This document shows positions 21,805 to 41,139 of a stretch of DNA of 64,000 nt, piece after piece. The stretch is from Rhodothermales bacterium (lineage in GTDB: Bacteria > Bacteroidota > Rhodothermia > Rhodothermales > BA12). The position numbers were made by a program, and so were the translations under genes. Every line of letters starts with the position of its first letter. Position 1 is the first letter of the stretch. Under the pieces are notes generated by a model. That model saw nothing but the letters and a program-made list of their open reading frames with translations. It ran no database searches and was not told where the DNA came from. The DNA is taken from the NCBI GenBank assembly GCA_014879465.1, contig JACSSA010000109.1:3891-67890 (forward strand), read 5' to 3'.

Positions 21805-22541
21805 TCAGCGCCCGTGGTCGTCGCTCCACGCCTCCAACATGTGCATTCTCGCACGATGCCGCGTGGCGGCTTCTTCGCTGGAGCCGATGGGAGCGCCGGG
21901 CGGCGTGGCCAGCGGCGCGGGGCTGCCGGACGGCGGCGGGAGCGGTCGGCTGAGCACCTGTTCGACGCGGTCGGCGACGTAGCGCCCCCACGCGTGATCG
22001 ACGCTGTTGAGGGCGGGAGCAAGCGAGGAGAGGCGTTGGGCGCGCCGGAGCACCGCGCGCAGCGCCTCGCGGGTTTGGGCGCGCACGAGCGGGGCGGCAT
22101 TCGGGTGGACTTCGAGCGTGAGCAGCGCGTCGAGATGCGCCGTTTGGACGGCACGGACGAGGTGGCGGTCGGCATCGGTTGTCGGGCGCGGATCGATCCA
22201 TACGGTGCGGATCGTGGCGTCGAGGACGGTGCCGAACGTCGGCAGGCTCTCGTCCGAAAACGTAGCACGTTGGAAGGCCAGACGGGCGGCGCGGTCGGGA
22301 CGCAGCAGCTCGTCGAACACCATGGCGGCGGCCACCTCGGCAGGGGCGAACGGATCGAACGCTATGCCGGTGCGGCCGGCGAAGTCTTCGCGTCCTTCTT
22401 CGTAGCCCGGTGGGCGCGGCGCGAGAGCGCGGATCTCGGGCGACACGCGCAGCGCGTCGGGGGTGAGGGTGGAAAGCAGCAGCCGCAGCGCCGCGTGCTG
22501 GTCGGCAGCGGGCACGGCGTGGGCGTAGCCGTCGCTGCCGT
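21805..22541 (-). pseudogene. Zinc-dependent metalloprotease, C-terminal fragment (gene split by the prophage)
   Basis: The frame is open from the phage junction (..GSDGYAHAVPAADQHAALRLLL...) to the stop at 21805. It joins in frame with 53406-55185. Confidence 0.8.
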
Positions 22542-22567
22542 TGAACCGAACCGCGAAAAATCGGCGG

Positions 22568-22582
22568 CTGAACTGAAAGAAA
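22568..22582. repeat. Left subterminal inverted repeat CTGAACTGAAAGAAA
   Basis: Perfect reverse complement of 53365-53379. It starts 26 nt from the proposed left terminus (22542). Confidence 0.9.
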
Positions 22583-22588
22583 CGACTC

Positions 22589-24679
22589 TTAGACGTACGG
22601 CCCCCAACCGAGGTCTTCCATGGGCGGGAGACGGAAAGCAGGAGGCCGGTTGACCGACGCTGCGCCGAGGTCGGTGCGGATGATCGTCACCGCCTCCTCG
22701 CTCACGCGCGCCAGTCGCCCGGCAACACGCACGGTGCCGCGGGCGGCCTCGACATCAACGTGCAGGGGAAGGATGCGACCTCCCGCTTCTTGGTCTGCAA
22801 GGCGAGCCAGCACATCGGCCACGTCTGCAATCTGGAGCGAGGCGGGACGAATCAGCGCGGTGTATTCCTCTTGCCCCCGACCGCCACGCAGCAGTAGCAG
22901 CGCCTCGCGTCCCGCCAGCAGGTGGAGCGGCTCGCCTGCATCGGGCGCGGGCACCTCGTCGTGCATCCAGTAGCGAACGGCAGCGCCGCCTTCTGCCAGC
23001 AACGCACCCGGATACCCCTGCAGTGGCCCGCTGCCAAGACTCACTTCCAAGCCAGCCGACTGCTCGGACTCCAGCAGTCGAAGGGGTGCGGCACCTTCGC
23101 GGGCAACCTCGTAGCGTTCGCTGTCGGCGTCCAGCCGCCCCGGCTCGCCCGCTCGCAAGCGCAGTTGGGCCATAAGCGCCGTGCCTCCCAAATACCATTC
23201 ATTGCGCAGCGCGTCGTAGATGCAAACCCATACGATGGCCGCCGACGGCAGCGCATTCGTGAGTAGATCAACCCGCGTCCACGTGTCGGCGGGAAAGGTC
23301 TCGGTTTCCACGTGGGACTCTTCGGTCGTCCACTCCAGCGTCGGATCTTCGGCGTTGGACGAACGTCGCGCATAAAGCGTCGGCAGCCCGTCTCGAATCG
23401 CCAAGATGCGTACACAGTAGGCGTGCGGCGTTTGGAGGGCGTAGCCGAAGAACCCCAGCGCCACAGCGTAGCCCTCGGGCAGCGATGCCGCCGGGGAGGT
23501 TGCACGTTGCGGCGGCAAGCCACCCTCTTCGCCGCGAAGTGCCACAGGGATGCGTAGCGCCTCAGCACCAAGAGTCTGGCCACCCTCGGCTGCTCCCGGA
23601 ATCATCGCGGTGGTCCGGGATGCTGCGGAATCTACCGCCCACTCTGCCGACGAGGTCGAAGAAACCACGCCGGTCTCGGACTTCCCGTGCCGGAAGGTGA
23701 GCGCCAGCCGGTCAGGCAAATCCGGCACGCGCACCTGCCCACCTTTGAGCCGCCGAGACGTCACGTTGAGGCTGGCACGCTCCAGCACCACGGCTTCCGC
23801 GGTGCCCTCTACACCGGCGGGGTATGCCCATCCTTCAATGGACGCGGTGTCCTCCACGAGCAGGCGGCGCTCCACGAGCAGCCACACGCCGAATCGCTGA
23901 ACCAGACAGGCGCCAAATGCGGTGGCGATATGCGCCAGCACGTCGGCAGCAGAGGACGACTCGGCACGCGGCAAGGCGTCGGCCTCGTCGACCACTCGCA
24001 CCCAACGCGACGGCGGCGCTTGCACCTGCGCCAACGGGTCGGCGGTGGCGGCCATCCCGCGTGCCCACGTCCGAACGCACGCAACAAGCGGAAGGCCAGT
24101 CGATGCGAGTGCCCGGCGCAGCCACCAGATCAGCGTTTGCGTGCCGTCGGCCAGCATGTCTTCGGCTTGGAGCAGCGTTTCCACGAGCGGCACGGTGGCC
24201 AGCGGCCCCAGTCCGCATGCAGCCGCAACCTCCACCGACGAGGCCCAGCGGTTGAGCGAGCGCGAGCGGGGAGATTCAAGAACTGGGCCTTCCACCAACA
24301 CCCGCTCTGGCGCAGCTCCTTCGTACAGCCGCACACGCACGCGATAGGCTTGGGGGGCGGCCAGCAGCGCCTCGGCCACGTGCAGCGAGCGCGGCGCCAC
24401 GTGTATCGACGCCACGGTGGCCAGCAGCGGTTCGATCGGAGAAATGCGCGGCGTTCCGCGCTGCACGGACACGCCTTCCTTCGCCACGTAGAAGCGCTCG
24501 ATCTCGCCTTCGTACCCCTCCTTGAGCACATCTACCACGACGCCAAGCCCTTCGCGCTGCACCACATAAGAGCGGTAGCGGACGTTGCCCCACGACGGAG
24601 CGACGTTGCCCATCGTGGCGGCTTCGCCGCTCGATGCGAAGTACGTAGATACCGAGGCGGGATCGAGGTGCTGATCCAT
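22589..24679 (-). CDS. Phage tail protein (distal tail/host-specificity candidate)
   Basis: ATG at 24679 overlaps the upstream stop (ATGA). 696 aa, the last gene of the tail operon. The track ORF extension to 25162 lies in a junk frame. Confidence 0.55.
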   Translation of the reverse strand: MDQHLDPASVSTYFASSGEAATMGNVAPSWGNVRYRSYVVQREGLGVVVDVLKEGYEGEIERFYVAKEGVSVQRGTPRISPIEPLLATVASIHVAPRSLHVAEALLAAPQAYRVRVRLYEGAAPERVLVEGPVLESPRSRSLNRWASSVEVAAACGLGPLATVPLVETLLQAEDMLADGTQTLIWWLRRALASTGLPLVACVRTWARGMAATADPLAQVQAPPSRWVRVVDEADALPRAESSSAADVLAHIATAFGACLVQRFGVWLLVERRLLVEDTASIEGWAYPAGVEGTAEAVVLERASLNVTSRRLKGGQVRVPDLPDRLALTFRHGKSETGVVSSTSSAEWAVDSAASRTTAMIPGAAEGGQTLGAEALRIPVALRGEEGGLPPQRATSPAASLPEGYAVALGFFGYALQTPHAYCVRILAIRDGLPTLYARRSSNAEDPTLEWTTEESHVETETFPADTWTRVDLLTNALPSAAIVWVCIYDALRNEWYLGGTALMAQLRLRAGEPGRLDADSERYEVAREGAAPLRLLESEQSAGLEVSLGSGPLQGYPGALLAEGGAAVRYWMHDEVPAPDAGEPLHLLAGREALLLLRGGRGQEEYTALIRPASLQIADVADVLARLADQEAGGRILPLHVDVEAARGTVRVAGRLARVSEEAVTIIRTDLGAASVNRPPAFRLPPMEDLGWGPYV

Positions 24680-26280
24680 CAGGGTAAGATGAGCGGGTGT
24701 AAATGATTTTCGGCCAGCGCGGCTGACGCGCCCATGGCGGGCACGAGCGTCGCGGACTCTTCGGACTCGCCACCTGCACCCACGGCCACAGCGCGGATGC
24801 GGGCGGGCAGATGCAGCGGCCACTCGATCTCGCCGCCATTCACCCACGCGGGCGGTTCGGCTCCGGCTTGCGCCGTCACCACGTACTCGGTCGCTCCTTC
24901 GGCCTGCGCATCCACGAGCAGACCGTAGATCGTGCGCTGCACCTCCAGCGCAGGCACGGGCGGGACATAACCCACGCCCCCGTCCACAATGGCTACGGAG
25001 AGCGGGTGGGACTCGGTGTAACCGCCGCCCGGCACGATGGTCCTCACCTCGATCTGCTGCGGCCCCGCGCCCAGATAGATGGGCCACGTTGTGCCCACGA
25101 GCGCCGCCACCTCTTGCCCAGCAACGCGCAGCGACGCTCCTTGCCCGCCAAGCCTCACCCACGATGCCACAAACTTACCCGGCGAGGGCGTCTCTTCCAC
25201 TGTGAGCACGGGCGCGAGCGCGCCGCCAGCAGAAGCCAGTGGCGGCACGGCCAGTGTAAATGGCCGAACGTCGCGCATCGTGGCGTTCGAGAGGCTCACA
25301 TCAAACGGGCGGTTTTCCACGTCCTCGATGCGTAGCGAAACGGTTGTCGCCTCGGCGCGGCTCTCGTAGGCCAGCGACACCCGCACCGCCTGTCCGGGCG
25401 GCACCTCCTGAGCATCACCACGGTTCGAGCAGATCAGCACGGGGTACGCGCCGTGGTTCACAGCGTCCGCCTCGATCACCGCCGAGATGCCCGCGCCCTG
25501 AGCATTGGGCGGCAACGTGTAGGTGGAGTAGGCGCACAGGCCGGATCGTGCCGTGCCCGCGTATCTACGCCCACCCGCGATCGTGGCTGTGGACGTGCCC
25601 GGCGCGGTCGAGTAGTTGGCCGCCGACCCGAGCACCAGCGCGTGCTCGGCCGGGTCGGCGGCGGCGGTAAACGACGGCACGAACGTGCGTGTCACGCCGA
25701 AGCCCTCTTGCATCGTCCACCGCGCCGCGCCCGCCACCGGCACTTCCCCGGCCAGCATTCGAATGAGCGCGGCCTGTGGGTTGGTGGCGGCCTCGGGGTA
25801 GCGGGTGAGAATAGCGGCGCGTGCGGCCACGCCAAACGACTGGGCCAAAACGGAGAGGTCGTGCGTCTCGGTGCAGCACCACACGCCCGTGGAGTACCCC
25901 GTGTAGCGATTGCCCGCCGCCGCTGTGCCGACCGTCGTTGCCACAACGGGCCACACCAGATCGGGGGCGCTGAACACTTCGTCGTAGCCGTTTCCAACAG
26001 CGCCAATAAGCACCGCTCCCGCAGCATCGGCAGCGGCGGCAAGACCTTGCAGATTCACAACGTCGAACCCTCCAAAGAGGATTTTGCATCCGTCAGCGAG
26101 GGCTGCCGCTACCGCCGTCCCTGTTCGGCTCTGCGAACGGTCGTAAATCTGCACCGTCCACCCTTCTCCGGGAGCGGACGCAAGGAAATACTGCTCCATG
26201 TCCCAAGCGTGCCCGGCGAGAGTGCCCGTGGCAGCGGCGTTGTAGGTGGCTGGGTCGTCCAGAAGGGCGGCGATGGGCAT
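24679..26280 (-). CDS. Phage tail protein
   Basis: 533 aa, translationally coupled on both sides and positioned between the fibre and the distal tail gene. Confidence 0.55.
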   Translation of the reverse strand: MPIAALLDDPATYNAAATGTLAGHAWDMEQYFLASAPGEGWTVQIYDRSQSRTGTAVAAALADGCKILFGGFDVVNLQGLAAAADAAGAVLIGAVGNGYDEVFSAPDLVWPVVATTVGTAAAGNRYTGYSTGVWCCTETHDLSVLAQSFGVAARAAILTRYPEAATNPQAALIRMLAGEVPVAGAARWTMQEGFGVTRTFVPSFTAAADPAEHALVLGSAANYSTAPGTSTATIAGGRRYAGTARSGLCAYSTYTLPPNAQGAGISAVIEADAVNHGAYPVLICSNRGDAQEVPPGQAVRVSLAYESRAEATTVSLRIEDVENRPFDVSLSNATMRDVRPFTLAVPPLASAGGALAPVLTVEETPSPGKFVASWVRLGGQGASLRVAGQEVAALVGTTWPIYLGAGPQQIEVRTIVPGGGYTESHPLSVAIVDGGVGYVPPVPALEVQRTIYGLLVDAQAEGATEYVVTAQAGAEPPAWVNGGEIEWPLHLPARIRAVAVGAGGESEESATLVPAMGASAALAENHLHPLILP

Positions 26281-26744
26281 TACGAAAGCAGAAGGATATC
26301 CAGTTGATGCTTGATGCCGTAGGCAGTCGCGTCGCCCTCAAAGGTCACGGTGATCCCTGTGACGAGGCCAGAACTGTAGGAATAGTCCAACCGAGCACGA
26401 CGCCACGACCCGGCCACCCGCACCCATGCGAGAAGTTTGTCGGGTACGGGGGTGTTGAAAACGACCGAGAAATAACGATCCGCGTTGAATATGCCTGTGG
26501 CGTTGGTTGCGTTCACGCCAATCTCGTCCACAGGGACGCTGCGAGTGTAGGACGACCCAACCTGATCCCACACAATGCGAGATCGCTTGAAGCCCACGCC
26601 CGACACGCTCACCGGCTCGCCCGATGCGTTGCCGATCTGGTGGACGATGGAGCCGTCTGTCTTTTGGACGAACCGCTCGTGGCCCGCAGCGAGCGGTTCG
26701 GCGATTTGCGATTCGGGGCGGAGCGTGCGCTGGGTGCCAGCCAT
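26280..26744 (-). CDS. Phage tail-associated hypothetical protein
   Basis: 154-aa beta-rich sequence in the tail operon. Confidence 0.5.
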   Translation of the reverse strand: MAGTQRTLRPESQIAEPLAAGHERFVQKTDGSIVHQIGNASGEPVSVSGVGFKRSRIVWDQVGSSYTRSVPVDEIGVNATNATGIFNADRYFSVVFNTPVPDKLLAWVRVAGSWRRARLDYSYSSGLVTGITVTFEGDATAYGIKHQLDILLLS

Positions 26745-26756
26745 TGAAGTAGGGGC

Positions 26757-28574
26757 TTAGGATGTCTTGATGTAGCCTGCGAGCGACAGCACATAGCCGC
26801 CGCCACCTGCGTTGAGTTGGCCGCCAAAGTTTCCAACTGTACCCGCCGGTACGGTGACAGTGAATGACTGCGGGGGGCCCCCCAGCGGAGTTACGGTCAC
26901 GGCGACGGTGCCTGTGCCATCGGTTTCGAGCACGATATCCCACGTCGAGCCGTCCGAGGGGGTGCCTGTTAGCGTGGTGTTGAGCGGAGATGGGCTTCCG
27001 CCTGTGCCACCCACATACTGTACCCCGGTGAACACCCATCCGCCAGCCTGACGAATGATGTGAAACCGTGCTCCGTTCGTCTGGCTGGCGGATGTCGAGC
27101 AGGCGTAGAAGCCCGCGAACATCGAGGTGGTGTTACCAACAGACACCCGCGCCTGAAAGCGTTGGGCGAGCGCCCCGATGTTGGCGAGGTGTCCAGACGT
27201 GCCGCCGCTCGCTGTCGCACCGGTAGAGGTGCACTCGTAACCGCTGGTGGTAGTCGTCTTGCCGCTCCGGTTCACGGCGATAAAATCGGAGTAGAAGATT
27301 CGTTGCCAATGCGCGTGGACGCTCGGCGGGAACGTCGAGGGCTTGCCCGTGATACGATCCCACGCCGCACCCGTGAGGTCGAGCACGGCGTTGCCCGCCT
27401 GCGATTTATGGACGACCCAGACGTGTCGTTCCACGTCGTCCGGGTCGATTTGCACCAACCCGTGCGGGTTTGTGTTGGGGTTTGGCCCGTACCCGCCGTC
27501 CGAGTCGAGGAGCACGGGTAGAATGACAGGCTTGCCCGTCACCTCATCCCACAGCGCCCATCCACGCGGGGGCCGGTCGGCCTCGTCCTCGTAGACATCG
27601 ACCGGTAGCGCGTCGAGCGTGACAGTCAGTCCCCCTGCCTCAAGCACCGCATCATCGAGCATGTTCTGGCCCGCGAGCCATCCGAGGTAGTGGCGCAGCG
27701 CCTCCACTTCCGCTGCTCCAGCCGCATCGTAGCCGCCGTAGGCCGTAATGACGATCACCCCTTCCGCCGCGAGCGCGTCGAGCGCGTGGCCTGTGTCCTC
27801 GACGCCAAGCGGCTCGCCCTCGGCATCGAAGCCGAGCACGAGTTTCGTCTTGCCCCCATCGCTTGCGATCGCCAGCGCCGCCGTGGTCGCAACCGCCGCA
27901 TCGCCGAAGGTGCGCCCGTCCGTGCTGCCCGCGAAAGCAGCGTCCGCCCACACGGTGCGGCTGGGCAGGTTCAGCCCCGCCACCGAGTTCACCAGCGTCT
28001 GTACCGCCCCACGTTTGGCCTCCACCGCCGCCAAGTCTTGCGCCGTCTGCGCCGCTGCATCGCTGGCCACCTGCGCGTGGCCGCTGGCATCGTCACGGGC
28101 CTGCACCGCGACACCGGTAGCAGCGTCCGCATCGTCGCGAGCCTCTTCGGCGCCCTCGCGGGCAGTCTGCGCCTGCACGACCAGCAGTTCGGCATCGTTG
28201 CGATACTCCTCTGCATCGGTGGCGGCCGTTTCCGCAGCGCCTGCGGCCAGCGTGGCCGTGTAGGCACTTTGCTCTGCGTCGTCTGCCGCACCGCTGGCCG
28301 CTTGGGCATGGCCAGCGGCATCGTCGCGGGCCTGCACCGCAACACCGACGGCAGCGTCCGCATCATCGCGAGCCTCTTCGGCGTCCTGTGCGGCCTGCTG
28401 GGCCGCCAGCGTCAAATCACCCGCTACGCCGACACGCTCGTCCACGTGCTCGGAGAGTTGGTGCACGTCGCCCGCCATCGTGCGGAACGTCTCGTCCACT
28501 TCGGCAGCCGTGAGGCCGCCGGGGCGCTGGGTGAACCCCAACGGGGGATCGGGAAACGGGGTGAACTTGCTCAT
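26757..28574 (-). CDS. Tail fibre protein with duplicated coiled N-terminal repeat
   Basis: A 29-aa unit AEEARDDADAA[VT]GVAVQARDDA[AS]GHAQ[AV]AS occurs twice. The C-terminus is beta-rich, and the gene follows the tape measure gene. Confidence 0.7.
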   Translation of the reverse strand: MSKFTPFPDPPLGFTQRPGGLTAAEVDETFRTMAGDVHQLSEHVDERVGVAGDLTLAAQQAAQDAEEARDDADAAVGVAVQARDDAAGHAQAASGAADDAEQSAYTATLAAGAAETAATDAEEYRNDAELLVVQAQTAREGAEEARDDADAATGVAVQARDDASGHAQVASDAAAQTAQDLAAVEAKRGAVQTLVNSVAGLNLPSRTVWADAAFAGSTDGRTFGDAAVATTAALAIASDGGKTKLVLGFDAEGEPLGVEDTGHALDALAAEGVIVITAYGGYDAAGAAEVEALRHYLGWLAGQNMLDDAVLEAGGLTVTLDALPVDVYEDEADRPPRGWALWDEVTGKPVILPVLLDSDGGYGPNPNTNPHGLVQIDPDDVERHVWVVHKSQAGNAVLDLTGAAWDRITGKPSTFPPSVHAHWQRIFYSDFIAVNRSGKTTTTSGYECTSTGATASGGTSGHLANIGALAQRFQARVSVGNTTSMFAGFYACSTSASQTNGARFHIIRQAGGWVFTGVQYVGGTGGSPSPLNTTLTGTPSDGSTWDIVLETDGTGTVAVTVTPLGGPPQSFTVTVPAGTVGNFGGQLNAGGGGYVLSLAGYIKTS

Positions 28575-31500
28575 CGAAGCCCGGTTTTGCGTTTGTAGCG
28601 ATCCCAGTCGGCCAGCGCTCCCTCCAACTCTTGGCCCGAGGCCCGCAGGCGCACGTCGCCGATCGCCTGTGCGAGCGCGTCGAACTTCTTCTCCAGCCGC
28701 TCCGTGCTCAGCGTCACCGCCGCCGCCGGGCTTGCCCCCGCCGACGCCAGCCCCAGCAACTGGCCAATGCGCTCGTTCGTGACGACGTTGCTGCCCGAGC
28801 CGAGCGTGACGAGCTCCGGCCCCCGCTCGCCGACGATGGCCGCGCCGCCCCCGAAGCCCGTAACGCCCGTGGCGAACTGCGGAATGGGCATGGCAGCGGC
28901 AACCGCCAGCTGCACCGCACCCAAAACTCCAACGGCCACCGACTTGGGGATGTTGGGCAGCGCCTCGACAACAGCGATGGCCGTTTGAAGGGCAATCTGG
29001 AACAACGCGGCAGCTTTTTCGCGCTTGGCTTGCCGGGTCTTCTCCTGACGCTCCTGCTCGCGGTATTTCGCCTCAATACCCGCCCGTTTCTGCTGCAGCG
29101 CCATCTTCGCCGCTTCCTGCTGCGAGTAGACGCGCCCCTGCCGTTCGAGCGCGGCCATCTGCTCATCGAGCGCGGCAAGTTCGGCAGACTTTTGCGCCTC
29201 GATGTCCTGCATCCGGCGCTCGTGCCCCGCCCGCCACAAACCGGTGATGAGGTCGAAGCCGCCTTGGGCAAGGTCTTTCATCATCTGCCACCGCTCCTGC
29301 TCCAGCTGCTTCTGCAGCTCGAACGTCTCGCGGGCGGCGTCGCGCCGTGCATCTTCGGTTTCGTCGGTCAGCCGCTGCTCGGCCTGCGCCAGCCGCTCGC
29401 GCTTCTGCTCGGCATCCGTCACCGTTCGCTCGACCTCGGCACGCTCGGCCTCGTGGGCGCGCCGGGCACGCTCGACGCGCAACTGGGCGCGGCTCTGGAT
29501 GGACGCGACCTCGCGGTCGTGCTCGTCTTTGATGCCGAGCAGCCGGGTAGCCGCCTCGTCCTCGGCCCGGGCCTGCGCCGCGTCCATCGCCTGCACCCGG
29601 CGCTGCGCGAGCAGAGCATCCATCTGCTGGAGCTGCTCGTGCTCGCGCCGCTCGATGTCGAGGTCTACCTGAGCCGCCTGCTGGGCCAGCTCCTTGCGGC
29701 GGTCGCTGCCCTCGGCCTCGCCCTGAAGCTCCGCGTTGAGCCGCGCCAGCCGCCCGGCCAAGATCACCTCCTCGGCCTCGCCCGCCAGACGCTTCCGCTC
29801 GTCCTCGATCTGCGCCGCCTGCTCGCGCTCGCGAAACGCCGCAGCGCGCCGGGCGGACGTGTTCTCGGCGATCGCCCGGGCCTCGGCGGCGCGGTTGGCG
29901 TCGAGGGCCTGCGTCTCTTGGGTCGTGATCGCCTCCTTTTGGGCAGCCGTCAACCCCGCCGCTTCCCGCGCCGCCGCCGCCGTCGCTGCGATCTCGGCGC
30001 GTTCCTGCGCGAAGCGATCCTTGATGAGCGCCTCCTGCCGGTCGAACTCGTTTCCGATTCCTTCCGCCAGCAGCCGTCCGATCTCCGAGCGCCAGCGTCG
30101 AAGGGCTTCGAGCGCCTCCTTGGCCTTCTGCTCGGCCTCGCTGTTGTCGTCGGTTTTGTCGCCGTCCACCGTCGTCTCGGGCATCGTGCCGCCTTGGGGC
30201 ACACGGTCGCCACCCGGCGGCAGCTCGGGGCCGTTCATGCGCTCGTTCACGACCTGCTGGAGACGGTCGCGCTCGGCACGGGCAGCGACGAGTCGCGGGT
30301 CGTCGGCCTTTCGCCCTGCTGCGACAAGCCGCGCCACGAGTTGATCGGCTTCGACCAACTGCGCCGTTGGATCGGAAGAGATAGCCTCGCTTGCCCGGCC
30401 AAGGGCCACCTGAAAACCCCGTACGGCTTGACTGGCTTCTTGAAACTTCCGTCTCTCCTCCTCCCACTCCGGTGATGCAACTCGCCGAACCTCTCCTCCC
30501 CGCCCAACCACTTCGCGTGGTCCCTTGCCTTGGCCCACCAAGTAGCGCATCTGTTGCCGGGCGAGGTCTTGCTTCACCAGTGCGTCCCGCAATCCCAGCG
30601 CCGCCTCATCCCGCTTTTGCACGAGCGCCGCGCCGGTGGCCGCATGAATGGCCCGCGCCAACTCCCACGCCTGCACGGTCTGGCGGCGAAGCGCCTCGGT
30701 GGCCACGTTCGCGTTGCGGCGCAGCAACAGATAGGCAGAGGCGGCAGCCGTGAGCAGACCGATGAAAAAGCCGACAGGGTTGGCCCGAACAGCCGCCGCA
30801 AAGCCCTTCGCCGCCGTCGTGGCAATGCTTGTGGCTGTGGCATAAACCCGTTTTGCGCCAGCGGCTACACCGGTCGCCGTGGCGTCGGCGCTGCTTGCCG
30901 CTGTTGCGGCCCAAAGTCTCACGATGTGCCGGGCCGTGGCCGTGTTGGCAAGCAGTTGCACGCCTTGGTATGCCTTCCACCCCGCCACGAAGGGCAGAAC
31001 GCGCTGCGCATTCACGACCACGACCTCTGTTAGGTGCTGTATGGTTTGAGCGCTGGATTTGACGCCGTTGGCGAGATCACGGAGGATCGTCGTGCCGAAC
31101 TGCACGGCCTCGCGCATGTCGCCGTCGAAGGCTTGCATCACCTCCATCGCGAACGTCTCGAAGGCCCCTCCCATCTCGTCGAGGTCACCCTTGAGGTTGT
31201 CGGTCATGAACTCGGCCATCCGCTCGGCCACGCCTTGGCTGGTCTGAAGCGAGGTCTTGAAGCCCTGCACCTTCTCTTGCCCCTGCGCCATCATGGCCGC
31301 AAACCCGGACGCTGCTTCCCGCCCCACCAGCAGTTCCAGCGCCGCCGACCGCTGCGCCTCGGTCATGCCGCCGAGCGATTCGTTGAGTCGCCCCACCAGC
31401 TCGGGCACGGGCAGCATCCGCCCCTGCACGTCCGTCACCTTCAGGCCCACCTGTTCCATCAACTCCGCCGCCCGTTTCGACGGGCTCGCCAGCGCAAAGA

Positions 31501-32230
31501 GACCGCCCTGCAGCGCCGTACCGGCACGCGATCCCTTGATGCCTGCCTCGGCCATGGCCATCGCCGCCGCCGCCGTGTCTTCGAGGCTCAGCCCCATCAT
31601 TTTGGCGACGGGTGCAGCGTAGGACATCGTCTCGCCCATGTCCGCGATGCCCGCCGCGCTCTTGGCGTCTGCCTGCGCCAGCACGTCCACCACGCGCCCC
31701 GTCTCGGACACGTCGAGACCGAAGCTCTTGAGCGTCGAGCCAACGATCTCCGCCGTTCGGCTGAGGTCTACCTGACCGGCCGCAGCGGCGTCGAGTACGC
31801 CCGGCAGGGCCTCCATCGTCTGCGCGGCGTTGAAGCCTGCCGCGCCCAGCTCGGCCATGCCCTGCGCGGCCTCGGTGGCCGAAAACGCCGTCTCCGCGCC
31901 GAGCCGTTTGGCCGTTTCGCGCAGCTCGCCAAGGTGAGCGCCCATGTCTTCCCCGGCTTCCGCCGTGAGCGCTCCGACGCGGGTGATCGTCGCGCCGAAG
32001 TCCACGGCCTTGGTCATCCCGGCCTGCAGGGCGTTCACCGCCGCGCCAATCGACAGCGCTTGCCGGATCTTGTCCCCGAGCGCCTTCCCGAAGGCTTGCT
32101 CAAGGTCTTTGCCTGCCGCCTTTCCGGTCGAGCCGAGCTTGCGCAGCTGCTCGTTGGTGAGCTGGATGGTGGCGAGGCTTTCGCGTCCGTCCACCACCAT
32201 CTTGATCTTCACTTCGTGGGTGGTGGCCAT
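28571..32230 (-). CDS. Tail tape measure protein
   Basis: 1219 aa. N-terminal TMP-type helical region (GALTAEAGEDMG..., MGLSLEDTAAAAMAMAEAGIKGSRAGTAL) and a long Ala/Glu/Arg/Gln coiled coil. Confidence 0.85.
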   Translation of the reverse strand: MATTHEVKIKMVVDGRESLATIQLTNEQLRKLGSTGKAAGKDLEQAFGKALGDKIRQALSIGAAVNALQAGMTKAVDFGATITRVGALTAEAGEDMGAHLGELRETAKRLGAETAFSATEAAQGMAELGAAGFNAAQTMEALPGVLDAAAAGQVDLSRTAEIVGSTLKSFGLDVSETGRVVDVLAQADAKSAAGIADMGETMSYAAPVAKMMGLSLEDTAAAAMAMAEAGIKGSRAGTALQGGLFALASPSKRAAELMEQVGLKVTDVQGRMLPVPELVGRLNESLGGMTEAQRSAALELLVGREAASGFAAMMAQGQEKVQGFKTSLQTSQGVAERMAEFMTDNLKGDLDEMGGAFETFAMEVMQAFDGDMREAVQFGTTILRDLANGVKSSAQTIQHLTEVVVVNAQRVLPFVAGWKAYQGVQLLANTATARHIVRLWAATAASSADATATGVAAGAKRVYATATSIATTAAKGFAAAVRANPVGFFIGLLTAAASAYLLLRRNANVATEALRRQTVQAWELARAIHAATGAALVQKRDEAALGLRDALVKQDLARQQMRYLVGQGKGPREVVGRGGEVRRVASPEWEEERRKFQEASQAVRGFQVALGRASEAISSDPTAQLVEADQLVARLVAAGRKADDPRLVAARAERDRLQQVVNERMNGPELPPGGDRVPQGGTMPETTVDGDKTDDNSEAEQKAKEALEALRRWRSEIGRLLAEGIGNEFDRQEALIKDRFAQERAEIAATAAAAREAAGLTAAQKEAITTQETQALDANRAAEARAIAENTSARRAAAFREREQAAQIEDERKRLAGEAEEVILAGRLARLNAELQGEAEGSDRRKELAQQAAQVDLDIERREHEQLQQMDALLAQRRVQAMDAAQARAEDEAATRLLGIKDEHDREVASIQSRAQLRVERARRAHEAERAEVERTVTDAEQKRERLAQAEQRLTDETEDARRDAARETFELQKQLEQERWQMMKDLAQGGFDLITGLWRAGHERRMQDIEAQKSAELAALDEQMAALERQGRVYSQQEAAKMALQQKRAGIEAKYREQERQEKTRQAKREKAAALFQIALQTAIAVVEALPNIPKSVAVGVLGAVQLAVAAAMPIPQFATGVTGFGGGAAIVGERGPELVTLGSGSNVVTNERIGQLLGLASAGASPAAAVTLSTERLEKKFDALAQAIGDVRLRASGQELEGALADWDRYKRKTGLR

Positions 32231-32246
32231 CGTGTGCGAGGTCGGT

Positions 32247-32753
32247 TTACGAGAGGTAGTCGGCGGCGTGGCTGGCGGCGTAGTCCACGCCCGCCATCAG
32301 GAGGTCGGTGAGGAGATCCCGGAGCGATCCGGCGAGCAGCATCCGGGCGGCGGCGGGGCCGTCGCGGTGCACGATGCGGCGGATGCTCACCTCGCTGCCC
32401 TCAATGCCGAGGCCGGACACGCCGCACCGGTCGGCGTAGTAGGAGACCGTCGCTGCGGCCTCGTCGCACTGGGCACGGGCAGCAGCGAAGAACAGGGCGG
32501 TGAGCACCGGGGCCAGCGCGTCCAGCGCCTCGCCCTCAAGGGCCTCGCCGTCCGCGTCCAGGACGCGATCCACCACCAGATGAGGCGGGACGGACGCGCT
32601 CGCGGGCACATCTTGCCGCCCAAAGAGCACGTCGTCCACGTCCAGCCGCTCGCCACCCCCGTCTCGAATCGCCCAGCACGCAGCCTCGAAGGCCGGAAGG
32701 GTGATCGGGACGAGGACGACGGACAGCCCAGCCTCGGCAATGCTCGCGGTCAC
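32247..32753 (-). CDS. Tail assembly chaperone candidate
   Basis: GTG at 32753. The call rests on its position between the tube and tape measure genes. No slippery site was identified. Confidence 0.4.
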   Translation of the reverse strand: MTASIAEAGLSVVLVPITLPAFEAACWAIRDGGGERLDVDDVLFGRQDVPASASVPPHLVVDRVLDADGEALEGEALDALAPVLTALFFAAARAQCDEAAATVSYYADRCGVSGLGIEGSEVSIRRIVHRDGPAAARMLLAGSLRDLLTDLLMAGVDYAASHAADYLS

Positions 32754-32761
32754 GACGGGCG

Positions 32762-33196
32762 TTAGGGCGTGGTGGTGACGGTGATCACGTCGGACTCCTT
32801 CGTGCCGGAGGCCGTGCCCTCGATGCGCATGAACGCCACCTTGCCGAACTCCACGACCGGCGAGCGCGAGCACATCAGGATGACGTTCTTCACGACCGTC
32901 TTGGTGGCCCCGTCGAGGCTGGTGTATTCGACGAACACCTCGACGCCGTCGGCGGCGAAGCCGCTGATGGTGGTGTAGTCCGCCTCCGGGACGCCCGACA
33001 GGTTGTGGGCGAAGCCGTAGACGACGCCCGCCTGCAGCTTGCGCTCGTCGGCGAGTTCGTCGTTCTTGATGTCCGGCTTGGGCCACTCCTGCCCTTCCTT
33101 GAGCAGGTTGCCGCGCCCGATGGTGACAGCGGGGGCCGTAAAGTTCTCGGTGGTGGCGATGCGGATCTGCTTGCAGCCGCCTTTGAGTCGAGCCAT
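32762..33196 (-). CDS. Major tail tube protein candidate
   Basis: 144-aa beta-rich protein two genes upstream of the tape measure gene. The call is positional. Confidence 0.45.
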   Translation of the reverse strand: MARLKGGCKQIRIATTENFTAPAVTIGRGNLLKEGQEWPKPDIKNDELADERKLQAGVVYGFAHNLSGVPEADYTTISGFAADGVEVFVEYTSLDGATKTVVKNVILMCSRSPVVEFGKVAFMRIEGTASGTKESDVITVTTTP

Positions 33197-33199
33197 GGG

Positions 33200-33400
33200 T
33201 CAATCCTCCGCGCCCGCGTCGGGCGCTGCTTGGGGTTCCGCCGAAGTCGGCGGAGGGGTGAACACGGAGTAGGCGCGGGCCGGAAGCCCCTTGAACTCGC
33301 CCTCGGGGGCGCTCACGAGCGCCTCCGGCGAGCAGGTGTAGAGGCGTCCGCTTTTCGCGCCCTTGTGGTTGTCGAGCGGAACGTGGATGCGGTAGAGCAT
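33200..33400 (-). CDS. Hypothetical phage protein
   Basis: 66-aa ORF tightly packed in the operon. Confidence 0.45.
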   Translation of the reverse strand: MLYRIHVPLDNHKGAKSGRLYTCSPEALVSAPEGEFKGLPARAYSVFTPPPTSAEPQAAPDAGAED

Positions 33401-33405
33401 GGGCG

Positions 33406-33717
33406 TCAGCGTTTGGCGCGGGTGGCGGCGGCGTAGACGATGCCTGCGAGGCCTATGCCCGCCAGCACGCGCTCGGCAGGAGATCCCGCCGTGAGCACCC
33501 GGCGAATGGACGACTCCAGCCCCGCCGGGTCGGCTAAGAGCGCTACGCCCACGCTGGCCACGGTGGCCACGATGCCGCCCACGTCGAGACGTCGGTTGTG
33601 CGGCAGCATCTGCGCCAGCGGCGACGGACGCTCCGGCAGCGGCGTAACCTCGTACGAGGCGTCCGCCGTCGGCAGCGGCGACGGGATGGGGTCGAGGGGC
33701 GTGATCGTCGGTTCCAT
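33406..33717 (-). CDS. Phage membrane protein (two C-terminal TM helices)
   Basis: VGGIVATVASVGVALLA and VLAGIGLAGIVYAAA. Confidence 0.5.
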   Translation of the reverse strand: MEPTITPLDPIPSPLPTADASYEVTPLPERPSPLAQMLPHNRRLDVGGIVATVASVGVALLADPAGLESSIRRVLTAGSPAERVLAGIGLAGIVYAAATRAKR

Positions 33718-33721
33718 AGAA

Positions 33722-34000
33722 TCAGGGACGGTTTGAGGCGCGGGCCTGCCACGCCTCGCGCTCCAGTTCGCGCAGCCGGTCGGCGTTGCGCTGCGCGAGT
33801 TGGTCGAGCATTTCGAGGCGGGCGTTGGTGGCCTCGCGGTTCTGCATCAGGACTTGGACGCCTTGGTTGGTCTCCCGAATGTTGCCCTTGATCTCGCTCA
33901 GCGTGGTGGTGATGTACCAGCCGAGCGTGGCCATGAGCAGCCCAAAGAGCAGGCGCAGGCCGTTGCTCGCGAACCAGTCGGGTACTTCTTGGCGGGTCAT
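33722..34000 (-). CDS. Phage membrane protein with TM helix plus coiled coil
   Basis: LRLLFGLLMATLGWYITTTL followed by a heptad-like segment QNREATNARLEMLDQLAQRNADRLRELERE. Confidence 0.55.
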   Translation of the reverse strand: MTRQEVPDWFASNGLRLLFGLLMATLGWYITTTLSEIKGNIRETNQGVQVLMQNREATNARLEMLDQLAQRNADRLRELEREAWQARASNRP

Positions 34001-34019
34001 AACGCCTGTTGCTTAGAGG

Positions 34020-34355
34020 TCACGCGGGCGGCGCGCCGCTGGAATCGGACGAGTCGTCGGTGTCGGACAAGCCGTCGGTGTCGGACGAGAGGTCGCCCGT
34101 CGTGTCGCCGGCCTCGACCTCTTCGGCGCCGGACTCGGACTCATCGTCGTCGTGGATCACGACGCAGCCGTATTCGGACGCGAGCAGCGCGGCGGTGGTC
34201 GCGGCTACGCCGGTTGCCGTGCCGTCCATGAAGGTCACGCCACAGCGTGTGCCGGAGAAGTCTGGGTTGCCGGTGCGCACCGTGGCGGTGGCCTCGGTCG
34301 TTTCGTCGGTCGGGACGGCAGGCGCAGTGGCCTGCTGGTGGCGGGTCTTGCTCAT
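34020..34355 (-). CDS. Hypothetical phage protein with acidic Ser/Asp tail
   Basis: 111 aa directly downstream of the capsid gene. The C-terminus reads HDDDESESGAEEVEAGDTTGDLSSDTDGLSDTDDSSDSS. Confidence 0.5.
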   Translation of the reverse strand: MSKTRHQQATAPAVPTDETTEATATVRTGNPDFSGTRCGVTFMDGTATGVAATTAALLASEYGCVVIHDDDESESGAEEVEAGDTTGDLSSDTDGLSDTDDSSDSSGAPPA

Positions 34356-34427
34356 CGGTAGCGAGAGAAAGAGACGGGCCGGGCGCTGCTCCGCACGGGC
34401 AGCAGACGCCCCTTGGCCCGCCTTGGG

Positions 34428-35405
34428 TTAGTTGGCGTTGAGGCGGACGCCCGACATGCGGAAGAACGCCTTCGGGTTGAGCACCGCGAGGTCCACGTCG
34501 AACTCGACGAGCGTCAGGTACTTGGTGCCCACGAGGCTGAGGTCTTGCACGTCGAGGCCCACGTTCGTGGCGAACGTCACGTCGCGCTGCTCGCCGAAGC
34601 GGATGCCGTAGATCGAGCAGCAGTCGTTGGACGTGCCGACCGTCTCCGTCTGCGGAAGGACGAGGCCGGTGCCGTTGGACGTGTAGCCCATGTTCACCAG
34701 CGGGACGCCGTTGTAGGTCGTGACCTTCTGCTCCTCGCCCCACGGCGTCTGGACGTTCTGGACCGACAAGTAGGATTTTCCGATGCTGCCCAGACGGGCG
34801 GCGAACGCCGCGTTGACCCCGAGCACCGTCGGCCCACCCGGAATGCCGCCCATGTACTCGTCGAGCTTCTCGAAGAAGCGGGCCACCTTGGTGGCGTTCG
34901 CGCCGGTCACGTCCGCCGGAAGGGCGTAGCCGTTGCCCGATCCGTCGTTCATGACGAAGTTGCGGCCCAGCGTGTCGGCTTGCGCCTTGAGGCCCTTGAA
35001 GCGCTGGGCGCTCTGGCTCACGTCGTGATTGATCGTGGCGTCGGCGAAGTACCAGCCGAGGCTCTCGGAGAACGCCTCCAAGTCGTTCAGCCGCTGGCTG
35101 CCGATGTCGGTGCCGCGCCGCTCGTGGGCGATGTCCGTCTGGACCTTGTCGCCGTAGATCTTGAGCTGGACGCTGCCGAACTGCGGCTCGCGCTCCTTCG
35201 GCGCATAGTCGGAGCCGGTGGTACGGGTGCCGCCCGCGTTGAACTGATCGCCGTTCTTGCGCGGCGCGTCCGCGTTGCCGGTGTGGCTGTAGAACTGCGC
35301 GTGCACGGCGAGCGGGTAGGCGGTGTAGAACTGGGCAAGCGCCGCTTCGCGCAGCTCCTCGGAGGAGCGGGCGGTGCTGCCGGTGGAGATTTCCTCGATG
35401 CGCAT
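34428..35405 (-). CDS. Major capsid protein
   Basis: 325 aa immediately downstream of the protease/scaffold gene, with size and composition typical of a capsid protein. The exact family was not determined. Confidence 0.7.
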   Translation of the reverse strand: MRIEEISTGSTARSSEELREAALAQFYTAYPLAVHAQFYSHTGNADAPRKNGDQFNAGGTRTTGSDYAPKEREPQFGSVQLKIYGDKVQTDIAHERRGTDIGSQRLNDLEAFSESLGWYFADATINHDVSQSAQRFKGLKAQADTLGRNFVMNDGSGNGYALPADVTGANATKVARFFEKLDEYMGGIPGGPTVLGVNAAFAARLGSIGKSYLSVQNVQTPWGEEQKVTTYNGVPLVNMGYTSNGTGLVLPQTETVGTSNDCCSIYGIRFGEQRDVTFATNVGLDVQDLSLVGTKYLTLVEFDVDLAVLNPKAFFRMSGVRLNAN

Positions 35406-35447
35406 GGGTGCGTGAGTGGTAAAGCGGTGAAGGCGCAGCCGCGCCGG

Positions 35448-36503
35448 TTACTTCGTGGACGTGGCGAGCGCAGCGCGGGCGTTGGCCCGAACCTGCTTGC
35501 GGTCGGTGGTGCGGTCGGCGCTGTTGACCATCCCGCCCTTCGGCGGCTGCACGCGGGCCGCGCCGTTCGGACGGACCGTGCCCGCCGGGATCGAGTTGAT
35601 CAGCGCGGCGGTGGCCTCGCGGTTGGAGTTGAGGCGCTCGCCCCACGCGGCGCGGTCGGCCTCTGGGATCTTGTAGTCGGCCACGGCGGCGTCGAGCAGC
35701 GCCTGGTCCACCTCGGCCTGCGCCTGCGCGTCGGCGTCGGTGCGGGCCTGCGCATCGGTCTTGAGCGTCTGCACTTCCGCCTCCAACTCGGCCACGCGGG
35801 CGCGGGAGGCGGCGAGGTCGGCGTCGAGCGCAGCAGCACGCTCCGCCGCGTCGGCAGCGGCCATCAGAACGTCCACCTCGTCAGGTTCGGTGCTGTTCAT
35901 GCGCAGCTTCTTCGCGGCGCGGTTGAGAAAGGCCCGGAGGCCGGTTTCGGTCTGGCTCATGGCCGGAGTTGGGGTTTGGGTCGAAGACGGTGCGCCCTCC
36001 TTCGGGCGCTTGTGGTTGATGACGAGCGTGCTGGAGGTCGGGATCAGCCGCTGCAGTTCGCCCGGCTGGCGGGCGCTGCTGGCCACCGGCGTCATGCCCT
36101 CCATGAAGGGCGTGTTGGTGAGCGCCACGCTCAGCAGCTTGGGGCCGCACGGATTGCCCGTGTTGGGGTCCACGGCCCACAGGTCGATCACCGGCGAGAG
36201 GAAGCGGTATTCTTCCGCCTCGATCATCTCGGCGGCGCGTTCGGTCCAGCGAACGTCGCCCCACAGCGAGGCCGGACGGTCCGCCGTCTCGGCCTCCACC
36301 CACAAGCGCGTGATCCAGCCCGCCGCCGGAACCGGCTCGCCCGCGTCGGCCCACTGGGTCGCGTGTTCGTAGTCGATCACCACGTCCCCGCGCAGGTTGC
36401 GCACCATCGCCTCCAGATCGGCCACGGCCAGCATCCACGGCCCTTGCCAGTGGCCGAGGTAGGCACCCACTTGGGCGAGTTCGATCTTAGAAGAGGGCTT
36501 CAC
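35448..36503 (-). CDS. Mu gpI-like head protease with C-terminal scaffold region
   Basis: N-terminal region VIDYEHATQ...GWI..LW...YRFLSPVI. C-terminal Ala/Asp/Glu coiled scaffold-like segment. Confidence 0.75.
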   Translation of the reverse strand: MKPSSKIELAQVGAYLGHWQGPWMLAVADLEAMVRNLRGDVVIDYEHATQWADAGEPVPAAGWITRLWVEAETADRPASLWGDVRWTERAAEMIEAEEYRFLSPVIDLWAVDPNTGNPCGPKLLSVALTNTPFMEGMTPVASSARQPGELQRLIPTSSTLVINHKRPKEGAPSSTQTPTPAMSQTETGLRAFLNRAAKKLRMNSTEPDEVDVLMAAADAAERAAALDADLAASRARVAELEAEVQTLKTDAQARTDADAQAQAEVDQALLDAAVADYKIPEADRAAWGERLNSNREATAALINSIPAGTVRPNGAARVQPPKGGMVNSADRTTDRKQVRANARAALATSTK

Positions 36504-36943
36504 TATTGGACCTCGAAGAGGATTTGGAGGGCGAAGGCGCTCAGTTCGGGAGCGCGAAGGATGGGGCGGACTTTGGCGTGGGTCCAGAGGGCGGACTGAT
36601 CGCCGCCGCCATCGAGGTCGAGAAGCGCGCCGCGCATCTGGTCGAGCACCCAGCCGAGCAGCGCCGTCGAGGCGCTCACGGCGGCGTCGTGCGAGGCGGC
36701 GTTGCGGGCGCAGCAGATCAGGTCGAGCGCGAAGCCGGAGGACGTGTCTTCCCCTTCGGTGACCGCCTCGATGTCGCCGCCCGCGAGGTCTACCAGCACC
36801 ACCGGCGTGGTGTTGAGCAGCTTGGCCGGGTTGAGCAGTTCGCCCGCGTAGGGACGAATGGCTTTCGGCCTTCCTGCCGACGTGGACGTGGCAAGCGCGT
36901 CGCGCAGGTGCGACACCACGGCGGCTTGGAGGGCAGGCAGCAC
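36503..36943 (-). CDS. Hypothetical head/tail-joining protein (Mu gp37-like by size and position)
   Basis: 146 aa, coupled to its neighbours. The family call is weak. Confidence 0.4.
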   Translation of the reverse strand: MLPALQAAVVSHLRDALATSTSAGRPKAIRPYAGELLNPAKLLNTTPVVLVDLAGGDIEAVTEGEDTSSGFALDLICCARNAASHDAAVSASTALLGWVLDQMRGALLDLDGGGDQSALWTHAKVRPILRAPELSAFALQILFEVQ

Positions 36944-36946
36944 GGG

Positions 36947-37360
36947 TCAGCGGGTGAACAAGCGGGTGCGCCCGCGGAAGAGGTTGGCCGGGTCGCCGTA
37001 CTCTGCCGTGGGCGTGGTCTCGGTCTCCAAACGGAGCGTGCCGCTGGCGATGCGGGCGAGCTGGTCGTCCAGCCGCTTCTCGGCCTTCAGGGCGTCTTCG
37101 TCCAGCCCGCCGGAGGATCGCTTCTTGAGCAGCAAGTACGCGCCTTCCACGTTGAGCACCTTAAGCACCGGGTGGCCTGTGGCCTCGAACGCGTCGGGGC
37201 GCTGCACCCGAGCGGAAGCGGCAATCACCTGCGCGTAATCGGTCACGGCTGCCTCCAGCTTCGTGGAGTCCACCGCCTGCCCCGTCGCGTCGCCGGTCAC
37301 TTCCGCAAGGCGGTCGGTCGGGTAGGCGTCGGTCACGTCTTGGGCGGTGCAGTAGGCCAT
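36947..37360 (-). CDS. Mu gp36-like (DUF1320-type) head-tail connector protein
   Basis: Begins MAYCTAQDVTDAYP, the characteristic start of this family. 137 aa. Confidence 0.6.
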   Translation of the reverse strand: MAYCTAQDVTDAYPTDRLAEVTGDATGQAVDSTKLEAAVTDYAQVIAASARVQRPDAFEATGHPVLKVLNVEGAYLLLKKRSSGGLDEDALKAEKRLDDQLARIASGTLRLETETTPTAEYGDPANLFRGRTRLFTR

Positions 37361-37640: not shown

Positions 37641-38111
37641 TTGGCACGATTCTTTCCCACGCCCGTGGCCGCCTCCGTCGAAACCCGCGCCCAAGCCGCG
37701 CAGCTCTACATCCTCCAGCGCAAGATGCCCGCCGAGATCGCCTCGATGCTCGGGGTGTCGGCAGCCAGTGTGCGCCGCTGGCGCGAGGACGAGGACTGGG
37801 ACGCCAAGGTGGTGGCCCGCGCCATGTCCGGCCCGCTCCTCGCGCAGGAGTGCCTCCAGCAGATCAGCCAGATCATCGAGGACGCCAAGAAGGAGAAGCG
37901 CAAGCTCACCGGCAAGGAGGTCAACGAGATGGCGCAGCTGCAGAAGATCGCGGACCGCAACGACGGCACCGCCCGCTTCAAGGCCCACGCCCTCGACACG
38001 ATGGACCGCTTCCTCTCCTATGTGGCCGAACGTGCCCCCGACCTCCACCCGCAGCTCGTGCCTGTCGGCATGGACTTCGTCCGCCGCGTGGTCGATTCCC
38101 CCGTGATTTGA
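37641..38111 (+). CDS. Small terminase-like HTH protein (Mu gp27/DUF1804-like)
   Basis: AAQLYILQRKMPAEIASMLGVSAASVRRWREDEDWD. It directly precedes and is coupled to the large terminase gene. TTG start uncertain. Confidence 0.55.
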   Translation: MARFFPTPVAASVETRAQAAQLYILQRKMPAEIASMLGVSAASVRRWREDEDWDAKVVARAMSGPLLAQECLQQISQIIEDAKKEKRKLTGKEVNEMAQLQKIADRNDGTARFKAHALDTMDRFLSYVAERAPDLHPQLVPVGMDFVRRVVDSPVI

Positions 38112-39817: not shown

Positions 39818-39832
39818 TCCAAACGCCCGTCC

Positions 39833-41062: not shown

Positions 41063-41066
41063 CCCT

Positions 41067-41101: not shown

Positions 41102-41139
41102 CTTCCCACCACAGGTCTGCCAGCCGCACCCGCAGACCC

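Follow-up and report, generated by a model that had tools for sequence, protein, structure and literature searches.

Among described transposable phages, the target duplication is 5 bp long in Mu and 6 bp in B3/Tn552-type and Leptospira prophages, which have tips TG-CA or TA-TA (PMC8705779), and short repeats of 4 bp that bound the element are reported for the Porphyromonas gingivalis/hankyphage group (PMC10367356). No report of a 3-bp duplication in any transposable phage was found in the literature searched, which did not include the review of Toussaint and Rice (2017). Here, a 64,000-nucleotide stretch from a Rhodothermales bacterium (GenBank assembly GCA_014879465.1, contig JACSSA010000109.1, positions 3,891 to 67,890; called the window below) was analyzed, in which a prophage occupies positions 22542-53405. 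It is highly likely that this prophage is a functional or recently functional Mu-like transposable phage with two sites at each end and a 3-bp target duplication. Reported lengths in other transposable phages are 4, 5 or 6 bp, and the present lineage is undescribed. The element, its ends and the host gene that it interrupts are as follows:

22542-53405, no strand assigned: whole transposable prophage, 30,864 bp; it splits a metalloprotease gene, has many flanks elsewhere and encodes Mu-type functions
22566-22582, plus strand: left arm of a 17-bp inverted repeat GGCTGAACTGAAAGAAA, which holds a 15-mer (window sequence and shuffles)
53365-53381, minus strand: right arm of the 17-bp inverted repeat (same evidence)
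22539-22541, plus strand: left copy of the 3-bp target-site duplication CGT
53406-53408, plus strand: right copy of the duplication; for either copy, one CGT restores the invariant RGD-G of the host protein
53406-55185, minus strand: N-terminal part of the interrupted host zinc metalloprotease
21805-22541, minus strand: C-terminal part of the same protein

The prophage begins with TGA and ends with TCA. Read inward from 22542, the left end is TGAACCGAACCGCGAAAAATCGGCGG-CTGAACTGAAAGAAA, and read inward from 53405, the right end is TGAGGGGAGGTGAGAGATGAGAGGGG-CTGAACTGAAAGAAA. The 15-mer CTGAACTGAAAGAAA has exactly two perfect copies in the window, at 22568-22582 (plus strand) and 53365-53379 (minus strand), inverted with respect to each other; in dinucleotide shuffles, matches amounted to 0.33 even with three mismatches permitted. 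A first-pass annotation of the window had proposed these termini, with TG...CA ends and a 15-bp inverted repeat. The termini and the TG...CA ends hold for this phage, and the repeat is real, but its measured length is 17 bp, with the GG just outside the 15-mer matching on both sides, so that it starts 24 nucleotides (nt) from either tip. Two further points of that annotation are confirmed: each of the three minus-strand frames contains a stop within the outer 26 nt on the right (inward positions 1, 11 and 18, all TGA), and CGT is the sole exact flanking direct repeat, 4 bp and 5 bp both being impossible.

The flanks of the prophage are the two halves of one minus-strand zinc-metalloprotease gene (DUF5117/DUF4953). 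Its N-terminal reading frame enters the element and stops 20 nt inside, and the C-terminal part resumes at 22541. When the halves are joined with one CGT, the protein reads ...YRYALRGD/GSDGYAHAV..., with a gapless junction and no residues missing against seven homologues, in which the RGD is invariant (n = 7 aligned; 41-47% identity in BLASTP local alignments to a 393-amino-acid query). Because one CGT restores the gapless protein, the ancestral plus-strand site is read as GCTGCC-GTC-GCCGCG, and the outer 26-nt pieces are not host sequence. In a search for an uninterrupted allele of the metalloprotease gene, the best match had only 46% identity, which shows the gap-free junction and cannot give the empty site.

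The same phage was recovered from other metagenome contigs by exact-protein look-ups with its last tail protein (696 amino acids) and with right-end proteins of 66 and 495 amino acids. Including the window, the identical phage adjoins five different left flanks (ending ...CCGT, ...GACC, ...GCTG, ...GCAG and ...CTC) and four different right flanks (starting CGTC, GATG, CTCG and CAGC). The junctions, with a slash at the tip, are:

Left, ...GCTGCCGT/TGAACC: window, SRR10267784/5
Left, ...CCCCACGACC/TGAACC: ERZ27277024 and ERZ23500052, with a flank of 4.6 kb; the site lies downstream of citrate synthase
Left, ...GAGGCGCTG/TGAACC: in a histidine-kinase H-box, ERZ27276649
Left, ...GACGAGCAG/TGAACC: ERZ27276648
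Left, ...GTGGCTCTC/TGAACC: ERZ23500051
Right, CCCTCA/CGTCGCC: window
Right, CCCTCA/GATGCCATC: ERZ27276648
Right, CCCTCA/CTCGTCCGTG: ERZ27277024
Right, CCCTCA/CAGCGCCGC: ERZ23500049

At every junction, the sequences diverge directly outside TGAACC... and ...CCCTCA, and the outer 26 nt are identical throughout. Because all flanks diverge directly outside TGA and TCA, 22542 and 53405 are the exact tips. Because the identical phage adjoins differing flanks, it has inserted at many unrelated host sites (at least five left and four right flanks) rather than at an att site, and the prophage contains no integrase gene. Since the tips are fixed independently, the duplication in the window is exactly CGT. 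The earlier suggestion that the target duplication may differ in length from that of Mu is thus upheld, the length being 3 bp and not 5 bp, with TG kept beside five unrelated left flanks; neither termini elsewhere nor clear 5-bp duplications were seen among the other insertions of the phage. The presence of several insertion sites in natural samples suggests that the phage is currently active.

The prophage encodes a DDE transposase next to an ATP-dependent activator:

46004-47659, plus strand: DDE transposase, 551 amino acids, divergent member of the rve / retroviral-integrase superfamily (phrog_310 at 2e-20)
47730-48677, plus strand: MuB-like AAA+ ATPase with a C-terminal helix-turn-helix, 315 amino acids (AAA_22 at 4.6e-18; phrog_296 'DNA transposition protein' at 5e-28; HTH_3)

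The helix-turn-helix of the ATPase (HTH_3/HTH_31, residues ~261-306) also weakly matches BcepMu gp16. For the transposase, no Pfam family reaches threshold, rve at 0.002 being the only match; NCBIfam gave sub-threshold matches to IS481, IS21 and IS3, and a PDB sequence search returned marginal retroviral integrase cores. A fold search with an AlphaFold model of low confidence (pLDDT 56.7) placed TnsB, IstA and integrases first and MuA (4FCY) at rank 33. In 5.8 billion protein clusters, only three proteins matched at E <= 1e-10, two of them relatives with 38% and 33% identity, and 16 more loci with 28-39% identity were found by a degenerate-pattern scan of IMG/VR from a three-sequence alignment. 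The family, besides the window, consists of these 16 IMG/VR loci and two Logan relatives. D146, D240 and E274 are invariant in its 19 members, leaving the DDE triad intact; they are the putative catalytic triad, on a strand and helix assignment taken from a weak model. Against 50,697 phage records, tblastn with the window transposase gave nothing at 1e-5. With the transposases of the relatives as queries, D3112-like and B3-like A proteins were matched at 22-25% identity over part of their length, and the window transposase is at most 25% identical to any sequenced phage transposase.

The ends of the window phage and of relatives with 28-39% identical transposases (17 ends in all) could be aligned in register from position 1 with a gap of at most 1 nt. 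The consensus is ACAAGGGGGG TGnAACAAAT GA-7nt-AAC TGCAACAAAT, which divides as follows:

Inward 1-10: terminal segment; transposase-side ends read ACAAGGGGGG, tail-side ends ACAACCGxxx
Inward 11-20: site 1, TGnAACAAAT
Next 12-13 nt: variable, GA + 7 nt + AAC
Inward ~33-42: site 2, TGCAACAAAT

Three independent contigs (L126, L130 and L131) mark the outer limit of this plan: each terminates precisely at position 1, leaving 10 nt beyond site 1. In the same plan, the left end of the window phage reads TGAACCGAAC / CGCGAAAAAT / CGGCGGCTGAAC / TGAAAGAAAC and the right end TGAGGGGAGG / TGAGAGATGA / GAGGGGCTGAAC / TGAAAGAAAT, with these elements:

22542-22551, plus strand: left terminal 10 nt TGAACCGAAC, tail-side tip type (AACCG), invariant across five insertion sites
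22549-22561, plus strand: left site 1 AACCGCGAAAAAT, outer motif copy (inward 8-20), in register with site 1 of the relatives
22571-22583, plus strand: left site 2 AACTGAAAGAAAC, inner motif copy, 22 bp from site 1
53364-53376, minus strand: right site 2 AACTGAAAGAAAT, two mismatches from the family consensus AACTGCAACAAAT
53386-53395, minus strand: right site 1 position TGAGAGATGA, degenerate, with ~4/10 bases matching the consensus; it resembles TGAGACAAGT in L130
53396-53405, minus strand: right terminal 10 nt TGAGGGGAGG (inward), G-run tip type, invariant across four insertion sites and homologous to the ACAAGGGGGG tips of the relatives

Homologues of the left tip are the ACAACCGxxx tail-side tips in L146, L257 and L446 and, in L207, the ACAATCAACC tip. 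With up to three mismatches, the family 13-mer AACTGCAACAAAT occurs at five places in the window, three of them at the phage ends (inward 8 and 30 on the left, 30 on the right); at the same tolerance, a search out to 400 nt from either end gave no third copy. Because the family motif is also present at left inward position 8, the 15-mer is the inner of two direct repeats 22 bp apart. The first-pass annotation had described a single binding site behind a poorly conserved 26-nt spacer, a view that did not survive: the outer 26 nt are invariant at every insertion and hold the conserved tip and the first motif copy. Its suggestion that the repeat is a transposase-binding site is very probably correct, a prediction drawn from the inverted placement of the motif at both ends and its conserved position across relatives. 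Two-site ends are also the arrangement expected for transposase-binding sites of Mu/Tn7-type elements, and binding itself is predicted here. A homologous DDE transposase together with the order tip, site 1, 12-13 nt and site 2 is found in the window phage, L124-L146, L207, L257 and L443/L446.

Some features vary among the relatives. Among L128-L143, L146, L207, L257 and L443/L446, most have tips ACA...TGT, not TG...CA. One genome carries two tip types, ACAAGGGGGG at the transposase-side end and ACAACCG at the tail-side end, and the window phage keeps this asymmetry (TGAGGGG vs TGAACCG). In L138, a perfect inverted repeat of 35 bp is made up of both sites together with the spacer, and the G-run end of L142 (2245-2304) seems to have the motif a third time, as TACAACACAT, 8 nt past site 2. 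In scans with end patterns, the bare 15-mer gave at least 120 matches in IMG/VR, all of them chance among the matches listed; looser site patterns gave at least 120 matches each in IMG/VR and in GTDB genomes, mostly chance among the matches listed; and a strict tail-side end pattern matched only its contig of origin in IMG/VR. The 19-nt pattern GGCTGAACTGAAAGAAAYG (the 17-mer extended by YG) had 33 chance matches in coding sequence (AELKE) in JGI metagenomes, and no phage copy.

The duplication length was also read in relatives. IMG/VR contig 3300037155_000153 (L142; 46.8 kb) was walked in three steps so that both ends could be read, ...CCCCATGTATAAG/ACAAAGGGGG... and ...CGTCGGTTGT/AAGCATTGG..., which share an exact AAG. 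Its flanks are ...TATAAG/ACAAAGGGGG...CGGTTGT/AAGCATT, and removal of the prophage plus 3 bp restores a host open reading frame of 828 codons; a 4-bp duplication (TAAG) fits only with the tail-side tip shifted in by one base. The ends of IMG/VR contig 3300037722_001039 (L138) are ...AGTTCA/ACAACCGACC... and ...GGCCCCCTGT/CACGGC.... A duplication of 5 or 6 bp was seen in none of the three phages, the length being exactly 3 bp in the window, 3 bp in L142 and 2 or 3 bp in L138, and 3 bp is the sole value consistent with all three together. The far ends of other relatives were also sought with the window tail proteins as tblastn probes, and no similarity was found.

Altogether, the following course of transposition can be proposed for the window phage. 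Each end presents two direct copies of a ~13-bp motif (family consensus AAC-TGCAACAAAT) at a spacing of 22 bp, roughly two helical turns, and the outer one starts ~8-11 nt from the tip. The DDE transposase (46004-47659) is predicted to bind these AACTGAAAGAAA sites and to pair the ends, and its cleavage chemistry would consist of nicking the 3' ends of ...TCA and joining them to the target with a 3-bp stagger, whose repair would give the CGT duplication. The adjacent MuB-like AAA+ ATPase (47730-48677) may have the role of capturing the target.

Several observations weigh against a Mu-like phage with two-site ends and a 3-bp duplication. The transposase model is of such low confidence that it supports a superfamily assignment at most, and site 1 at the right end matches the motif poorly. 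For the phage itself, only one fully unambiguous pair of partner flanks is available, that of the window. Two other pairings share three junction bases. One of them counts in favor of 3 bp: its left flank ends GAG-CAG and its right flank starts CAG-CGC, with the common CAG in a single coding frame of high GC3 (GC content at third codon positions), and the two are probably partners of one insertion; an intact allele spanning this pair was searched for and none was found. The CTC/CTC pair joins out of frame for 3 bp, with Pfam uninformative, and its sharing is probably due to chance. In L138, the duplication is CA (2 bp) if the tips are ACA on both sides, and TCA (3 bp) if the G-run tip starts CAG. 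Moreover, contig k141_8593 (ERZ27276648; L281 and L275; 31,048 bp) holds the whole phage between flanks CAG/ and /GAT, with no duplication.

From such cases it could be argued that the duplication is not fixed at 3 bp in the family, being 2-4 bp or absent at some insertions: depending on tip placement, L138 reads 2 or 3 bp and L142 3 or 4 bp, and k141_8593 has none. However, 3 bp alone fits the window, L142 and L138 together, and the tips of the window phage were fixed independently of the duplication. Two of the 19 non-window left-right flank pairings share three junction bases, against ~0.3 expected by chance by our own arithmetic. The flanks of k141_8593 are 99 and 85 nt long, both below the assembly k of 141, and seem non-contiguous in the host. 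Only the right flank matches a LuxR/GerE helix-turn-helix, from profile position 22 on, and the left flank lacks the first half. Because the flanks are shorter than k and only the right one matches GerE, we infer that this contig was assembled from mixed junction reads of replicating or packaged phage DNA; a transposition-associated rearrangement may alternatively have produced it. Considered as a second complete insertion, it was rejected, the flanks being neither partners nor parts of one gene, and it was left out of the estimate of duplication length. If it does represent mixed junction reads, active replication or packaging in the ERZ27276648 sample is suggested. A variable duplication length is therefore considered unlikely, and a fixed length of 3 bp is preferred.

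Even less probable is the idea that the inverted repeat is a regulatory or packaging signal, such as an operator, a pac site or a terminator, and not a transposase-binding site. Mu has a pac site near its left end, and transposase binding at the present repeat is predicted only. However, the motif is inverted at both ends at equal distance from the tips, is repeated with a period of 22-23 bp and keeps its position across relatives whose DNA is otherwise unrelated (GC 33-69%), a pattern that fits the end sites of a transposon and not a one-sided pac site or operator.

A Mu-style 5-bp duplication CGTCG, with the left copy mutated to CGTTG, would make the element 22544-53405, starting AACC and with asymmetric ends. 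CGTTG and CGTCG are only one base apart, and Mu makes 5-bp duplications (PMC8705779). However, the TG at 22542-22543 lies beside five unrelated left flanks and thus belongs to the phage and not to the target; the two ends share an identical register only with TG included; and L142 would likewise need a mismatch for 5 bp (ATAAG vs GTAAG), all of which makes this reading scarcely credible. It is just as hard to accept that the true tips lie inside the repeat (TGAACTGAAAG...CTTTCAGTTCA, 22569-53378) and that the outer 26-27 nt are carried-over DNA or an older small element, for although TGAAC...GTTCA would make a textbook TG...CA terminal inverted repeat of 14 bp and contig L123 stops at 53383, 5 nt beyond the inner CA, the outer 26 nt do not vary on either side between the independent insertions and can be aligned with the relatives' tips and site 1, and the other end of L123 is likewise an arbitrary break, within the phage. 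The end of L123 (ERZ27276649 k141_11736) at 53383, 22 nt short of the right tip, was accordingly rejected as a true tip, given the invariance of the outer 26 nt at the other insertions. It directly follows the inner G-run (CCCC on the plus strand), and the left end in the same sample lies at a different host site, in a histidine-kinase gene.

Besides the transposase and the ATPase, the two-site transposable prophage carries further phage genes. They include those for a GemA-like protein, a large terminase and a Mu-like protease, after which come the capsid and tail genes. The GemA match is faint, and an Ogr/Delta-like zinc-finger gene is found in place of a clear Mor. The following genes are placed by coordinates:

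22589-24679, minus strand: last tail gene (696 amino acids), whose stop is 47 nt from the left tip
39833-41062, plus strand: Mu-type portal protein (Portal_Mu at 1e-45)
42918-43442, minus strand: repressor with a Peptidase_S24 (LexA/CI-like) domain
48927-49481, plus strand: Gam-like protein (PF07352 Phage_Mu_Gam)

The order of the modules (22589-53258) is unusual for a transposable phage. Genes from tail to capsid and protease occupy the minus strand at 22589-37360, terS, TerL, portal and muramidase the plus strand at 37665-42323, and beyond the minus-strand repressor the early genes, transposase, ATPase and Gam among them, extend to the right end. The same order is found in L124-L126, and in other relatives the transposase lies 3-8 kb from the G-run end. 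GC content drops to 0.59 at 42001-43000, around the repressor and the divergent early promoter region, against ~0.68 elsewhere. In the ERZ27277024 copy, a plus-strand open reading frame of 72 amino acids (L273/L276, positions 450-668) replaces a minus-strand one of 50 amino acids in the window and SRR10267785 copies; this swap, at window ~51027-51179, resembles a small replaceable cassette between otherwise identical genes.

On balance, though by a modest preference, the window phage and its relatives are taken to be a lineage of their own, not described so far, among the transposable phages of Bacteroidota/Rhodothermota, with a transposase closer to the IS481/IS21/IS3 type than to MuA or Tn552, a 3-bp staggered cut, mostly non-TG/CA tips and two tip types per genome; it may reflect an independent or very early-diverged recruitment of a DDE enzyme for phage replication. 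Prophage finders and curators rely on TG...CA tips with a scar of 5 or 6 bp, rules that a lineage with a 3-bp scar, mostly ACA...TGT tips and an unrecognizable transposase escapes. The end plan (tip, site 1, site 2 and the 22-23 bp period) provides a direct means of delimiting prophages of this type in genomes of Bacteroidota and Rhodothermota. The lineage is also a further data point on the variation of stagger length among integrase-superfamily transposases paired with AAA+ ATPases. Seen at several host sites in environmental samples, the phage may be active, and as a genetic tool for Rhodothermales it could be a candidate.

Compared with Mu and Mu-like phages (proposed Saltoviridae), the window phage is likewise temperate, inserts at many unrelated sites and has a DDE transposase beside an AAA+ ATPase. 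Genes for a repressor, a GemA-like protein, Gam, a Mu-type portal and a Mu-like protease are common to both, as are several transposase-site repeats per end ~22 bp apart, TG...CA tips and a short target duplication. In contrast to Mu, the duplication is 3 bp and not 5, the site sequence is unrelated, and the genome is 30.9 kb against 36-39 kb, with another module order, in which ~5.7 kb separate the transposase from the right end and two divergent blocks hold the structural genes. The transposase has no MuA-specific Pfam domain (neither the Mu-type helix-turn-helix nor the Mu transposase core nor the C-terminal families) and no clear similarity to MuA; a single tblastn match to a MuA-type/D3112-like protein, at ~22-24% identity, was reached via the relatives. 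The first-pass comparison of the ends with Mu thus stands for the mechanism and fails for the transposase sequence, which is not MuA-like, and for the tips of most relatives. Of the features of Saltoviridae sensu Hulo et al. (TG...CA, GemA, Mor, Mu-type portal, 35-39 kb), TG...CA is present in the window phage, with ACA...TGT in most relatives; the portal match is strong, GemA is faint, no clear Mor was found, and the genome is shorter.

Phages of the B3, BcepMu and Leptospira type, with Tn552-related transposases, share lifestyle and gene set with the window phage. Of sequenced phage proteins, the B3-like transposases (PM105, Ps60) are some of the closest to its family, at 23-25% identity over 55-78% of the protein, a match obtained with the relatives as query only and not with the window protein. 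A Tn552-related transposase and a 6-bp duplication are thus both lacking, the identity being at most 25% and the duplication 3 bp. With the hankyphage / Porphyromonas gingivalis group (candidate Alisviridae), the window phage has in common the host superphylum, transposition that is not site-specific, divergent terminase-portal and protease-capsid blocks, repeated sites from ~10 nt inside the tip and a distant portal similarity (22.7%). However, the ends of PP754929.1, TATAGGGCACAAAACGACACGGGAT..., are unrelated to those of the window family, and the duplication is 3 bp against 4; neither a shared transposase nor conserved termini nor a 4-bp repeat was found. The ends of PP754929.1 (L447; 1-110 and 34941-35050) open with TATA and contain repeats AAAACGA(C/A)(A/G)CGGGAT, unrelated to TGCAACAAAT, and its 682-amino-acid transposase was not detected by a profile of the window phage's family.

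An RNase-H-fold DDE core is shared with IS481, IS21 and IS3 elements and with the Tn7-like TnsB, and the best fold matches of the low-confidence model, TnsB and IstA, both have AAA+ partners. IS3-family elements typically make duplications of 3-4 bp. All scores of the window transposase are far below the cut-offs of these families, and the element is a 31-kb phage and not an insertion sequence. The finding stays within the known concept of transposable phages, and the window phage is not a new kind or class of element.

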